From sequence record MK327944.1: a stretch of 64,000 nucleotides of DNA. One strand, given 5' to 3'. This document shows positions 4,447 to 40,714 of the stretch, one piece after another. Both the position numbers and the translations under genes were made by a program. The stretch comes from Escherichia phage vB_EcoM_G2540-3. The notes under the pieces are model-generated. The model was not told the DNA's origin. It was given only the letters and a program-made list of their open reading frames with translations, and ran no database searches. Every line of letters begins with the position of its first letter. The first letter of the stretch is position 1.

Positions 4447-5064
4447 ATGTACCACTTTGTATATGAAACAACAAATCTAATAAATGGTAAAAAGTATATA
4501 GGAAAACACTCTACTGATGACTTGAATGATGGTTACCTTGGTTCCGGTAAGGCAATTCAGCAGGCTATAAAGAAATATGGTGAAAACAATTTCTCTAGAA
4601 CAATACTAAAAGAGTTTAAAACTTCCGAAGAAGCGTACATGTATGAAGAAGAAATTATAACTCCTGAAATAATAAAAAGCAAAAATTATTATAATATGAA
4701 ACCTGGCGGAATTGGTGGAATTGTTATGACTACAGAGGTTATAGCAAAGATGAAAGAATCTTCCGCTAAGAGATTTGAAAACTCACCGGGCACGGTATTA
4801 GGTACAACTTGTTACACTAATGGAACTAAAAATATTTTTATTAAGCCTGGAGAACTTGTTCCAGAAGGATTTGTAAAAGGGATGGTTCATCCTAATAGAA
4901 AGTCCAGAAAAGGATGTAAAGTCAAACCGACTACCACAGGAACTTTTTGGGTCAATAATGGTGCAATAAATAAATTAATACAACCAGACGGTATTATTCC
5001 CGACGGATTTATTAAAGGTCGTCTCATGAAAAGAGATTCTAAAGGCAAATTTAGTAAGGCATAA
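4447..5064 (+). CDS. segE: GIY-YIG homing endonuclease, SegE-like
   Basis: N-terminal GIY-YIG module (YHFVYETTNLINGKKYIGKHS…); located between inh and uvsW exactly where T4 segE lies. Confidence 0.8.
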   Translation: MYHFVYETTNLINGKKYIGKHSTDDLNDGYLGSGKAIQQAIKKYGENNFSRTILKEFKTSEEAYMYEEEIITPEIIKSKNYYNMKPGGIGGIVMTTEVIAKMKESSAKRFENSPGTVLGTTCYTNGTKNIFIKPGELVPEGFVKGMVHPNRKSRKGCKVKPTTTGTFWVNNGAINKLIQPDGIIPDGFIKGRLMKRDSKGKFSKA

Positions 5065-36441: not shown

Positions 36442-36757
36442 AAGTCCTCAACTTGAAAATCGTCTTTAAACAATCGGTTAACTATATGAGCTATTATATC
36501 ACCATGACACGGCTTTGGTTTACATGTGCATCCTAGCCTCATTCCACGTAAAGGCTCTAAATGTGCTTTAGTTATTTCTCCGGATTTAATTCGACGTATA
36601 AAATCTTTTTTGAATAATTCAATGGCAGCCTCCCGGCTGCCAGCATCTTTACCGACGTAATTTCCCAAAATGTACCACGGTGAATATTAACATCAAAGTC
36701 GGATTTATATTTATTCACTACCTGGCATAGACGGCCCGCGCGGTGATAATTCGTCAT
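36432..36757 (-). CDS. DUF4326-like protein (nrdA.1 position), reading frame split by apparent 1-nt frameshift
   Basis: ATG-initiated frame [31 protein letters not shown] and a -1 frame continuing [18 protein letters not shown]…[16 protein letters not shown] together resemble one DUF4326 protein; junction at a G-run. Confidence 0.5.
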
Positions 36758-36974
36758 ATTGTTTTTCCGTTAAAACAGTAATATCATAGTAACAATCTGA
36801 AGAAGTTTTAACTGTAGAAATTTTATTATCAAAATACTCACGAGTCATTTTATGAGTATAATATTTTTTGCCATAAATGATAATAGGCTGATTTGGTCCT
36901 GGAACTTCTAATTCACTTGGGTTAGGAAGTGTAAAAAGAACTACACCAGAAGTATCTTTAAATCGTAAAATCAT
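36711..36974 (-). CDS. Hypothetical protein (nrdA.2 position)
   Basis: 87 aa from ATG at 36974 with SD gagga; track ORF starts at upstream TTG. Confidence 0.5.
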
Positions 36975-36997
36975 ATATCCTCGCAATTAAATTAAAA

Positions 36998-37309
36998 TTA
37001 TACCGCCATTTTTCCTTTCAAGACACCGTGGGACTGATAATCTTTGAGAACGAAATCTTTAGGCCTGAGTTTAAGAACATATTCCAATTGTTCTTTAGTA
37101 GAAAGATAACGGAATTTATAAGGCAATCCGCCTATTACCAGTTCACAAAGCTCTTTAGGTTCACGACGCAAAATTTCTTTGCACTGTTCTACATGATTCA
37201 TATAGATATGAGTATTACCACCAGAAAATATCAAATCTCCTGGAGTAAGATTACACATCTTAGCTACAATATGAACTAACGCAGCATATGATGCAATATT
37301 AAACGGTAG
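36998..37309 (-). CDS. td: Thymidylate synthase, exon 2
   Basis: Begins LPFNIASY… immediately after intron 3' end …AUG; C-terminal TS sequence. Confidence 0.9.
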   Translation of the reverse strand, partial: LPFNIASYAALVHIVAKMCNLTPGDLIFSGGNTHIYMNHVEQCKEILRREPKELCELVIGGLPYKFRYLSTKEQLEYVLKLRPKDFVLKDYQSHGVLKGKMAV

Positions 37310-38325
37310 CATTATGTTCAGATAAGGTCGTTAATCTTACCCCGGAATTATATCCAGCTGCATGTCACCATGCAGAGCAGACTATATCTCCAACTTGTTA
37401 AAGCAAGTTGTCTATCGTTTCGAGTCACTTGACCCTACTCCCAAAAGGGATAGTCGTTAGGCATTTATGTAGAACCAATTCCATTTATCAGATTTTACAC
37501 GATAAGTAACTAATCCAGACGAAATTTTAAAATGTCTAGCTGCATCTGCTGCACAATCAAAAATAACCCCATCACATGAAATCTTTTTAATATTACTAGG
37601 CTTTTTACCTTTCATCTTTTCTGATATTTTAGATTTAGTTATGTCTGAATGCTTATGATTAAAGAATGAATTATTTTCACCTGAACGATTTCTGCATTTA
37701 CTACAAGTATAAGCAGAAGTTTGTATGCGAACACCGCACTTACAAAACTTATGGGTTTCTGGATTCCAACGCCCGTTTTTACTTCCGGGTTTACTGTAAA
37801 GAGCTTTCCGACCATCAGGTCCAAGTTTAAGCATCTTAGCTTTAACAGTTTCAGAACGTTTCTTAATAATTTCTTCTTTTAATGGATGCGTAGAACATGT
37901 ATCACCAAACGTTGCATCAGCAATATTGTATCCATTAATTTTAGAATTAAGCTCTTTAATCCAAAAATTTTCTCGTTCAATAATCAAATCTTTCTCATAT
38001 GGAATTTCTTCCAAAATAGAACATTCAAACACATTACCATGTTTGTTAAAAGACCTCTGAAGTTTTATAGAAGAATGGCATCCTTTTTCTAAATCTTTAA
38101 AATGCCTCTTCCATCTCTTTTCAAAATCTTTAGCACTTCCTACATATACTTTATTGTTTAAAGTATTTTTAATCTGATAAATTCCGCTTTTCATAAATAC
38201 CTCTTTAAATATAGAAGTATTTATTAAAGGGCAGTCCTACAATTTAGCACGGGATTGTCTACTAGAGAGGTTCCCCGTTTAGATAGATTACAAGTATAAG
38301 TCACCTTATACTCAGGCCTCAATTA
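37310..38325 (-). mobile_element. td group I intron (1016 bp) carrying I-TevI
   Basis: 5' end reads UAAUUGAGGCCUGAGUAUAAGGUGACUUAUACUUG… after exon …CUUGGGU; 3' end …AUG; length 1016 nt as recalled for T4 td intron. Confidence 0.9.
37457..38194 (-). CDS. I-TevI: Intron-encoded GIY-YIG homing endonuclease I-TevI
   Basis: 245 aa, MKSGIYQIKNTLNNKVYVGSAKDFEKRWKRH… with C-terminal Zn finger and HTH. Confidence 0.95.
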   Translation of the reverse strand: MKSGIYQIKNTLNNKVYVGSAKDFEKRWKRHFKDLEKGCHSSIKLQRSFNKHGNVFECSILEEIPYEKDLIIERENFWIKELNSKINGYNIADATFGDTCSTHPLKEEIIKKRSETVKAKMLKLGPDGRKALYSKPGSKNGRWNPETHKFCKCGVRIQTSAYTCSKCRNRSGENNSFFNHKHSDITKSKISEKMKGKKPSNIKKISCDGVIFDCAADAARHFKISSGLVTYRVKSDKWNWFYINA

Positions 38326-38874
38326 ACCCAAGAAAACATCTACTGATCGTTGATACCACTGAAGGTCAAGATAACCATTACGCACATTAAACTGATAGAA
38401 CATATGACAGGGCGGTAATGCCATCTGCTTGAGTTCAGCTGGATTCCATGCCGACACAATTTGACGTCTATCATTGGGAAATGTTTTAATACGATTAACA
38501 ACTTCTACAATTTGATCTACACCACCAAAATCACGCCACTGTTTTCCGTAAATTGGACCAAGTTCACCGCTATGATAACCTAAGTCTTTGGCCTGGTTTT
38601 CGTAGTTTTCATCCCAAATTGTTTTTCCTGCAATTAAAGATCCATGAGTACGTTGACGTAAATCATTTACGTTAGTACTTCCTGATAAGAACCACAATAA
38701 CTCAGAAATACACGCATTCCAGGCGAGCTTCTTGGTTGTTACTGCAGGAAAACCTTTAGTTAAATCCCAGCGCAATTTAGTACCGAACAAAGCAATTGTT
38801 CCTGTGCCTGTTCGGTCATCAGTTTCATAGCCATTTTCAAAAATGTCTTTAATTAAATCTTGGTATTGTTTCAT
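38326..38874 (-). CDS. td: Thymidylate synthase, exon 1
   Basis: MKQYQDLIKDIFENGYETDDRTGTGT… through …QRSVDVFLG; catalytic PPCH motif. Confidence 0.92.
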
Positions 38875-38918
38875 TTAGTACCTTATATAAATTATAATAC
38901 ATTTTATGAAGCTAATAA

Positions 38919-39266
38919 TCAATACGGTTTAGCATCAAATTTTCTTTCAATTTCAGGCGTGAAATATAATTCTTTACCGCGTTTGGAAAAGCGACCAATA
39001 ATATGATAATTATTCTCATCAAACGTAATATTGCCAATATCCATAGCTTTCAACCAAATATCGATATTTCTGTCAAGCTTTATATCAAAATTCCAATACG
39101 GAGAACTATTACCGAAAATACTACAAGCGGATTCAGTGAAACAGCTGCTATAAATCTTGTCTTTAGGAACTACTAATTGATAGACGCCTTTAATAAACTG
39201 AGGACCCTGCCATTTTGGTTGTTTCGCGTCTTTTTCTAATAGAATAGGGTAATAATTAAAATTCAT
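38919..39266 (-). CDS. Hypothetical protein inserted between frd and td
   Basis: 115 aa from ATG at 39266 (track start is GTG); no similarity recognised; frd and td are recalled as directly abutting in T4. Confidence 0.5.
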   Translation of the reverse strand: MNFNYYPILLEKDAKQPKWQGPQFIKGVYQLVVPKDKIYSSCFTESACSIFGNSSPYWNFDIKLDRNIDIWLKAMDIGNITFDENNYHIIGRFSKRGKELYFTPEIERKFDAKPY

Positions 39267-39286
39267 ATTTTCCGCCACGCGTTATT

Positions 39287-39874
<588 letters not shown>

Positions 39875-40117
39875 TCAAAACCCCCTTTCAATAAACCATT
39901 CAGTGGCTTTATTAGCATCAAAGAATAATTCTTCATATGTCTTTTCTTTGTTTTCAAAGACTGTCACACAAACACGTTGACATTCTCCACAGTATTCTTC
40001 TGACATGCTCAAAGCGTCAGAAAACATTTCATTAAATTCATTTAAATCAGGATTATGCAATGCGTTAAAAATTGCATAATCGAATTCATCATTCATAAAT
40101 TCAAATACAAAAATCAT
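39875..40117 (-). CDS. Hypothetical protein (frd.1 position)
   Basis: 80-aa ATG ORF. Confidence 0.5.
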   Translation of the reverse strand: MIFVFEFMNDEFDYAIFNALHNPDLNEFNEMFSDALSMSEEYCGECQRVCVTVFENKEKTYEELFFDANKATEWFIERGF

Positions 40118-40125
40118 ATTATCTC

Positions 40126-40461
40126 CTAATATAAAGGATCGGGAATATATCCACTGGCTTTAATCATTTTAATTAACGTTAACATTCCTTTATTAACTGC
40201 TTGTGAGATTTCATTAAAAACTTCATCACTAAAAAGTTCTAACACGCCCTTCTGAACTTTTAATTTACAACCAACAATTTCGTCATCGCCTATAGTAAAT
40301 TCGTTTCCGCCAATTCCACCGAAAAACTTAATTACGCCAGTTAACTGTCTTCCACGAGAATATGGGTCGTGTGATAAAGTAATATGAGTCACCCCAGGTA
40401 CAGTTTTAAATTGGCAGCGAATGTTTACTTGTGAAATTCCAGTTACGTGAATGTCAGACAT
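40126..40461 (-). CDS. Hypothetical protein (frd.2 position)
   Basis: 111-aa ATG ORF. Confidence 0.5.
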   Translation of the reverse strand: MSDIHVTGISQVNIRCQFKTVPGVTHITLSHDPYSRGRQLTGVIKFFGGIGGNEFTIGDDEIVGCKLKVQKGVLELFSDEVFNEISQAVNKGMLTLIKMIKASGYIPDPLY

Positions 40462-40471
40462 AATATTTTCC

Positions 40472-40714
40472 TCAGACAGACTTTTTCACAATTTTCCAAT
40501 CAGCTTTAAACTGTTCAACGTCAGAGTGGTAAATCCAGAATCCTGCGCTTTCTCCATCTTCATAAAGAGGGCATCCATCGCATTCATCTTCCCATCCCAT
40601 ATCACGTAAAAGTTGTTCAGCTTTTTCAACAAGTTCAGAATCTTTACCGATGATATTAAAATACCATTTACCTCTAGCTTCTGAATCTTTAATGCTCTGA
40701 CGTTGTAATCTCAT
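40472..40714 (-). CDS. Hypothetical protein (frd.3 position)
   Basis: 80-aa ATG ORF. Confidence 0.5.
   Translation of the reverse strand: MRLQRQSIKDSEARGKWYFNIIGKDSELVEKAEQLLRDMGWEDECDGCPLYEDGESAGFWIYHSDVEQFKADWKIVKKSV

Follow-up and report, generated by a model that had tools for sequence, protein, structure and literature searches.

A conserved gene of uncharacterised function between frd and td in Escherichia phage vB_EcoM_G2540-3 and its relation to the empty junction of phage T4

Introduction

In the reference genome of phage T4 (NC_000866), the genes for dihydrofolate reductase (DHFR; frd) and thymidylate synthase (TS; td) share a 4-nt ATGA overlap and nothing lies between them. In Escherichia phage vB_EcoM_G2540-3 (MK327944.1), of which a stretch of 64,000 nucleotides was analyzed (hereafter the window), the two genes are separated by an open reading frame (ORF) of 115 codons. 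An earlier note, made from the letters of this DNA, had correctly described frd and td of T4 as abutting. It had also described a minus-strand ORF with its own ATG that fills the frd-td gap in the same orientation, and both its coordinates and its translation were found to match. The same ORF is not present in the T4 reference (NC_000866). This raises the question of what the gene is, whether it entered the junction or was lost from that of T4, and what its product may do next to these two enzymes.

Results and Discussion

Organization of the frd-td junction

The ORF is located on the minus strand at positions 38919..39266, with the ATG at 39266 and the TGA stop at 38919-38921. The 115-aa translation begins MNFNYYPILLEKDAKQPKWQGPQFIKGVYQLVVPKDK, and the product, an orthologue of Td.1 and a member of phrog_1928, has a calculated mass of 13.6 kDa and a pI of 8.5. 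A GTG at 39278 lies in the same frame and a start there would yield 119 aa (four additional residues); the ATG start is used by nearly all public annotations. The upstream neighbour in the same direction is frd (39287..39871, minus strand; 194 aa, C-terminus ...VYK-TGA). Downstream follows the 5′ part of td (TS exon 1; 38323..38874, minus strand), for which the listed ORF extends into the group I intron. The I-TevI ORF inside this intron was found at 37457-38194. The intron itself must lie between approximately 37313 and 38322, around I-TevI, and was missed by the E-value-based Rfam scan of positions 36500-40500, in which a single sub-threshold Yar_1 match (39164-39235, plus strand) was taken as a chance hit.

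The spacer between frd and the ORF comprises 20 nt (39267..39286, minus strand) with a weak Shine-Dalgarno-like GGCGGA inside. The spacer between the ORF and td is 44 nt in length (38875..38918, minus strand) and contains the Shine-Dalgarno sequence AAGG for td as well as a candidate MotA-type middle promoter at 38889-38912 (minus strand), consisting of GCTTCA, 12 nt and TAATTT. This pattern was identified 17 times in the window, compared to 7.1 expected occurrences. A scan of 38300-40200 for sigma-70 promoters and terminators gave results no better than those of shuffled sequences.

Both flanks of the ORF carry the 9-mer TAAATGAAA. The upstream copy (39285..39293, minus strand) covers the frd stop and the downstream copy (38869..38877, minus strand) covers the td start codon. 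From the ATG of the upstream copy a dead mini-ORF, ATG AAA TAA, can be read (39282-39290, minus strand). It overlaps the frd stop (ATGA) and is in frame with the 115-aa ORF.

Further upstream, frd is preceded by a gene for an 80-aa phrog_3183 protein (39875-40117, minus strand), which is also present in RB32 and has no T4 counterpart, and by one for a 111-aa DUF7247 protein (40126-40461, minus strand; PF23905, E = 8e-44), which is absent from T4 and RB32. The interval from frd to gene 32 is a patchwork of variable small genes.

Identity and distribution of the ORF

The ORF had been described as unassigned in the earlier note. In fact, it is an already catalogued, conserved hypothetical gene of uncharacterised function, annotated in hundreds of genomes, among others as td.1 in T6 and as RB32ORF229c, and contained in PHROG 1928; as such, it is no discovery in itself. 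The match to phrog_1928, a family with the annotated function "unknown", has an E-value of 8.4e-36 and aligns residues 4-111 with profile positions 2-125 of 126. Using megablast with positions 38700-39500, 569 phage records were obtained, 355 of which covered the full stretch, and the closest was that of phage 121/2022-2B (99.1%). With tblastn, the ORF protein was found in 588 phage records. A 100% identical protein is encoded by T2, RB14, T6 and many others, and the exact sequence was detected on 341 contigs, where it is named hypothetical protein every time.

The T6 protein Td.1 (ABI48938.1, AY262134.2; 115 aa), whose record names the gene td.1, is 100% identical to that of the window. RB32ORF229c (ABI95053.1; 115 aa) shows 98% identity and is described in its record as "hypothetical protein, flanked by 9 bp repeat". 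The orthologue of phage KarlGJung (Bas37, MZ501089), bas37_0070, is identical in 114 of 115 residues, likewise with a length of 115 aa. The spacers of 20 and 44 nt are the same in RB32, T6 and Bas37 within 1 nt, and the 9-mer flanks of the RB32 and BYEP02 alleles match the window where checked. Thus, the orthologues of T6, RB32, T2, RB14 and Bas37 differ in nothing of substance from the ORF analyzed here.

The statement of the earlier note that no motif could be recognized was borne out, since neither the ORF nor its paralogue (see below) nor a homologue from a Klebsiella phage had a match in Pfam, NCBIfam or PADLOC. For 43 diverse family members, the Pfam scan gave scattered single matches only (E > 0.003). 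A profile search against all PDB sequences, solved anti-defence proteins included, reached a best E-value of 1.3. A literature search found no paper discussing the td.1/RB32ORF229c/phrog_1928 gene. Using HMMER, 51 members (E ≤ 0.001) were identified among 1.84 billion representative proteins clustered at 50% identity. Nearly all of them are 95-148 aa in length, and all those with phage matches belong to T4-like phages.

Coding capacity and selection

Substitution rates were calculated according to Nei and Gojobori for pairs among the copies of the window, RB32, T6, 121/2022-2B, F2, OLB35 and BYEP02. For the ORF, dN/dS was between 0.03 and 0.06 in most pairs from Tequatrovirus and Mosigvirus; the two highest values (0.17 and 0.23) were obtained for pairs that hardly differ in sequence and thus offer very few substitutions. 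The values of the neighbouring genes are comparable, with 0.04-0.08 for frd and 0.05-0.09 for td. The ORF is therefore a genuine protein-coding gene under strong purifying selection. A chance ORF or non-coding spacer, for which only the absence of a known motif could be cited, can practically be dismissed: synonymous differences far outnumber non-synonymous ones (33 versus 10 between the window and F2), the frame is conserved down to approximately 30% identity in many genera, and the structure prediction described below is confident.

Between genera, the identity of the ORF product (32-46%) is lower than that of DHFR (42-57%) and of TS (75-86%). Compared to the metagenomic contig L014, the ORF product is even better conserved than DHFR (63% versus 47% identity). 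A gene evolving fast in an arms race would not be expected to show this pattern of selection.

The phrog_1928 family as part of an frd-td cassette

A homologue of the ORF follows directly after frd in Kanagawavirus, Mosugukvirus, Jiaodavirus, Gelderlandvirus, Moonvirus, Winklervirus and Mosigvirus (OLB35), and also in the Klebsiella phage vB_KpnM_Clarke_MM3, whose record gives no genus. The identity of these homologues to the ORF is 27-46%. In T4-like phages of Serratia, Cronobacter, Proteus and Erwinia, too, the homologue adjoins an annotated dihydrofolate reductase gene. The position next to frd is thus fixed across eight named genera, and an overlap of the stop and start codons between frd and the homologue is usual.

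In most of these phages, a second ORF of approximately 115 aa precedes td. This ORF2 was found between the homologue of the present ORF (ORF1) and td in Kanagawa-, Mosuguk-, Gelderland-, Moon- and Winklervirus, in vB_KpnM_Clarke_MM3 and in contig L014. Both match phrog_1928 and were identified as paralogues by hhalign (probability 99.4%). They have the motifs D..Q.KW, HG(I/L)Y and GRFxKxGxE(I/L)xF in common. In ORF2, strand 1 is followed by an additional stretch of approximately 20 residues (PTIxxYKRNP insert), and the C-terminal DAKPY tail is lacking. The window contains paralogue 1 only. A putative remnant of an ORF2 start after the ORF ("MLNRIDY*") was considered and rejected, because conservation of the ORF1 C-terminus constrains these bases.

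Outside the 90%-identity cluster, the closest relatives were found on two metagenomic contigs (63-66% identity). One of them, L014, carries frd, ORF1, ORF2, ORF3 and td in this order, with all genes overlapping. Its ORF3 (4670-4879) belongs to phrog_9550, as does a 68-aa gene of phage ELT1. The full cassette consists of ORF1 (phrog_1928), ORF2 (its paralogue) and ORF3 (the 68-aa phrog_9550 gene), coupled to frd and td by stop/start overlaps. An ancestral cassette of three genes, from which different members were lost, is the simplest reading. Comparison of the family with the 68-aa ELT1 allele, frd.2 and DUF7247 using hhalign revealed no relationship.

Alleles of the junction in the E. coli T-even phages

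Four types of junction were distinguished. The type of the window, with ORF1 and spacers of 20 and 44 nt, forms the majority (355 of 569 records, approximately 60%). In the F2/OLB35 type, the usual stop of frd is lost through two additional A residues. As a result, frd encodes 205 aa and overlaps ORF1 by 11 nt; the ORF-td spacer, with 13 nt, is 31 nt shorter than in the window. The DHFR of F2 (L016:894-1511) and OLB35 (L017:1526-2143, Mosigvirus) thereby has an 11-residue extra tail, NEIATGGKYEF.

In the third type, found in ELT1, JS98, pSs-1 and others, an unrelated gene for a basic 68-aa protein (phrog_9550, a family listed with unknown function) overlaps both frd and td. This gene (ELT1 copy L011:774-980) was detected in 135 phage records at ≥90% identity. 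A protein of approximately 43% identity was observed in records of phAPEC8-like E. coli phages, two of them named Phapecoctavirus, and the gene thus appears more widely mobile than ORF1. The fourth type is the empty junction of T4 and RB69, which was present in about 5 of 60 evenly sampled rows (approximately 8%).

In addition, BYEP02 (L018:1557-1666) has a T4-like frd. Between this frd and ORF1 lies a duplicate of approximately 85 nt from the frd 3′ end, which is annotated as a 99-bp ORF. It is visibly a recombinant, and the ORF1 cassette is able to enter a T4-type background.

Origin of the empty and the occupied junction

T4 and RB69 contain exactly one copy of the 9-mer at the frd/td overlap, compared to two in the window. 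As judged from the sequence, recombination between the two copies would leave exactly the empty T4/RB69 junction. The 9-mer was found 12 times in the whole window, compared to 4.1 expected occurrences in shuffled sequences. It appears to be a generic stop/start junction motif of this genome and, as such, a ready substrate for deletions between short repeats.

The earlier note had regarded the ORF as an accessory gene inserted into a conserved operon. The term accessory holds, as T4 and RB69 naturally lack the gene and an orthologue of 99% identity was classified as non-essential (see below). The term insertion, however, reverses the broad polarity, since a homologue resides beside frd in the seven further named genera of the Tevenvirinae analyzed. 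Together with the usual stop/start overlap and a rate of evolution about as slow as that of frd, this makes it well supported that the gene is an old resident of the frd-td interval, with a deep residency beside frd. The empty T4 junction is a rare derived state.

In a proximate sense, an insertion may still have taken place, as indicated by the flanking duplication of the 9-mer, the dead ATG-AAA-TAA and the BYEP02 recombinant. The gene would then have been re-acquired secondarily in this lineage: a donor fragment comprising the 3′ end of frd, ORF1 and the beginning of the following gene would have entered an empty T4-like overlap by recombination and thereby duplicated the 9-mer. Such an event comes close to the insertion of the earlier note, concerns history only and is compatible with either of the functional hypotheses discussed below. 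It is a real possibility, though we would not expect it to be the correct account. It is in line with the 9-mer on both flanks of the insert and its single copy in T4 and RB69, although two copies of a generic motif (12 versus 4.1 expected) need not mean a target duplication. The mini-ORF beginning at the upstream 9-mer corresponds to the first two codons of td. The 20-nt frd-ORF spacer can be aligned colinearly with the 3′ end of frd in L014 and L015, the nearest relatives that carry the ORF; the 24 nt after TATAAA align to the L015 frd 3′ end without gaps, with 13 of 24 positions identical as counted on the alignment, a degree of identity that is weak in AT-rich DNA. The dS values between the window and F2 are discordant (ORF 0.87, frd 0.24, td 1.58), and BYEP02, as described above, is unmistakably recombinant. 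Against a re-acquisition, ORF1 junctions also occur in Mosigvirus (OLB35), and ORF1 is the majority state (355/569) in the E. coli T-even records, which are dominated by Tequatrovirus. Vertical descent with repeated loss is therefore at least as simple. From the dead mini-ORF, the L015-colinear spacer and BYEP02 it follows that, besides being an old resident, the cassette also re-enters empty junctions by recombination.

Dispensability under laboratory conditions

Phage Bas37 (KarlGJung, MZ501089) was transposon-mutagenised in the HIDEN-SEQ study (bioRxiv 10.1101/2025.11.20.689424). Another transposon study deals with phiKZ and has no bearing on this gene. On E. coli K-12 BW25113, 34 of the 36 TA sites of bas37_0070 were disrupted and the gene was classified as "Non-essential" (bioRxiv 10.1101/2025.11.20.689424). 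On uropathogenic isolates, log2 fold changes of 0.40, 0.18, −0.09 and 0.16 were listed (adjusted p = 1.0 each; bioRxiv 10.1101/2025.11.20.689424). The isolates were assigned by the order of the sheets, by which the first three are CFT073, CFE299 and CFE303 and the fourth is probably CFE331. [quoted passage not shown] The ORF is thus dispensable in the laboratory: T4 and RB69 exist without it, and insertions into the Bas37 orthologue were not measurably costly on K-12 in LB.

The mean insertion counts for K-12 in LB were 372 for bas37_0070, 117 for frd and about 30 for td (bioRxiv 10.1101/2025.11.20.689424). As the count of bas37_0070 exceeds those of frd and td, insertions upstream of td are, by these data, not polar on td. 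The candidate promoter in the ORF-td spacer would fit this lack of polarity, and td might have its own promoter downstream of the ORF; alternatively, read-through from the transposon would account for it.

For Bas37, the low mean counts of td and of the intron gene I-TevI (about 30 and 96, respectively) indicate that insertions there are costly on K-12 (bioRxiv 10.1101/2025.11.20.689424). Insertions into both were significantly enriched in the comparison presumed to be that with CFT073 (log2 fold changes of about 2.6 for td and 1.9 for I-TevI) and in a fourth comparison (bioRxiv 10.1101/2025.11.20.689424). This suggests that the need for the phage thymidylate synthase is host-dependent.

Predicted structure and conserved residues

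With AlphaFold2, an alignment of 29 sequences resulted in a pLDDT of 78.5, and one of 71 sequences in a pLDDT of 92.9 and a pTM of 0.86. The secondary structure assigned by DSSP to the latter model is E6-12, E27-34, E62-64, H68-77, (E80-82), E86-96 and E99-104. The order of elements known from OB folds, β1-β2-β3-α-β4-β5, is found in the predicted model. In the structural search, the model could not be superposed significantly on any solved OB domain, and neither a neighbour in the PDB nor a nuclease match was obtained; known anti-defence proteins with solved structures showed no similarity in sequence profile or fold.

W19, G91, K95 and G97 are invariant in the family, and Q16, L9, G27, Y29, R92, F93 and F102 are nearly so. 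In the model, conserved residues map to the β1-β2 loop (Q16, W19), to β2 (G27, Y29) and to the β4-β5 hairpin (G91-R92-F93-x-K95-x-G97). In OB folds, these three elements form the ligand-binding face. The predicted product thus resembles OB-fold domains such as Teb1 OB-B (3u4z), p204 HIN (5z7d), RPA and S1 in the order of strands and helix, the small size and the basic pI, and, if the model is correct, in the conserved aromatic and basic residues on the same three elements. Among the invariant positions, we see no set of residues typical of a catalytic site.

In four records of the BASEL collection (FriedrichMiescher, FelixPlatter, FriedrichZschokke and KarlGJung), the gene is labelled "putative homing endonuclease". 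Apart from this annotation text, a self-mobile element of that kind would agree with the indel polymorphism beside the I-TevI-containing td. However, no nuclease family was matched in Pfam, NCBIfam, PHROG or the structural search, the motifs of the GIY-YIG, HNH, LAGLIDADG and PD-(D/E)XK families are absent from the invariant positions, and 115 aa offer no room for a nuclease and a DNA-binding domain. The fixed position across genera is also unlike that of the free-standing seg and mob genes. Having no motif, domain or structural support, the annotation was rejected and a homing function is highly improbable, close to being refuted.

Possible functions of the product

The best explanation overall, held tentatively, is that of an old frd-td cassette gene whose product is a binding partner of the DHFR/TS module. 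More specifically, though with a little less confidence, the product may be a non-catalytic, single-domain binding protein acting on or with this module. It would be made together with DHFR and TS and would bind through a face formed by Q16, W19, G27, Y29 and the G91-R92-F93-x-K95-x-G97 hairpin. Candidate ligands would be a partner protein of the dNTP-synthesising complex, for which that of T4 is the reference case, or a nucleic acid (ssDNA or the frd-td mRNA). In this way, it might fine-tune the supply of thymidylate and would not be required for it.

The link to the DHFR/TS module consists of gene co-localisation and translational coupling only. As synteny is generally highly conserved in T4-like phages, adjacency to frd alone is weak evidence of a common function. 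Moreover, T4 works without the gene, insertions into the Bas37 orthologue were not measurably costly on K-12 in LB, and other phages have an unrelated 68-aa protein in this place, which would fit a permissive accessory slot equally well.

Such a slot is the basis of a competing functional explanation, according to which the product is a counter-defence or host-takeover protein, i.e., a small early or middle inhibitor of a host factor (for instance, of a nucleotide-depleting or nucleotide-sensing defence) unrelated to DHFR and TS, and the frd-td gap just tolerates cargo. This is somewhat unlikely, yet hardly less probable than a role with DHFR and TS. In its favour, the gene is present in some close relatives and absent from others, its site can be taken by an unrelated 68-aa gene, paralogues occur in tandem in other genera, and the adjacent slots hold variable small genes absent from T4 (phrog_3183, DUF7247). 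The same applies to the small family size (51 representatives among 1.84 billion proteins at 50% identity, nearly all 95-148 aa) and to a predicted fold that appears to have no known relative. On the other hand, a dN/dS of 0.03-0.06 and a divergence between genera no faster than that of DHFR are unlike those of typical arms-race genes, and the place beside frd is fixed in eight named genera. Neither PADLOC models nor PDB sequences, including those of solved anti-defence proteins, were matched, and the Bas37 orthologue showed no conditional fitness effect in the five comparisons given above.

A bolder form of the binding-partner explanation can be formulated, which we consider quite unlikely. 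Td.1/phrog_1928 would represent a new fold family restricted to enterobacterial T-even phages and act in trans as a coupler of the thymidylate cycle, either bridging DHFR and TS or tethering both, at the replication fork, to ssDNA coated with gp32. In that case, a deletion between 9-bp repeats would have deprived laboratory T4 of a native part of its dNTP machinery. An analogy is offered by the bifunctional DHFR-TS of protozoa, in which a junction region lies between the two enzymes. The order DHFR, small element, TS is the same, and in both cases the element would couple enzymes of the thymidylate cycle. In contrast to the protozoan junction, the element of the window is a separate and dispensable polypeptide, with no sequence or structural relationship to it.

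Significance

The T4 frd/td ATGA overlap of the textbooks is a minority state, present in approximately 8% of the sampled E. coli T-even records. Elsewhere, the same interval contains one to three small genes, and at least four alleles have been recombined among the E. coli T-even phages. The protein encoded by the ORF is as conserved as DHFR, and its fold is predicted with confidence and lacks a neighbour among PDB structures. It is therefore an inexpensive candidate for structural work and for the mapping of interactions. For Bas37, which carries the gene, transposon libraries already exist. The T4 reference lacks a gene that is kept by most of its relatives and is tightly linked to frd. Since its overlap is the minority state, models of thymidylate and dNTP synthesis based on T4 may lack native components.
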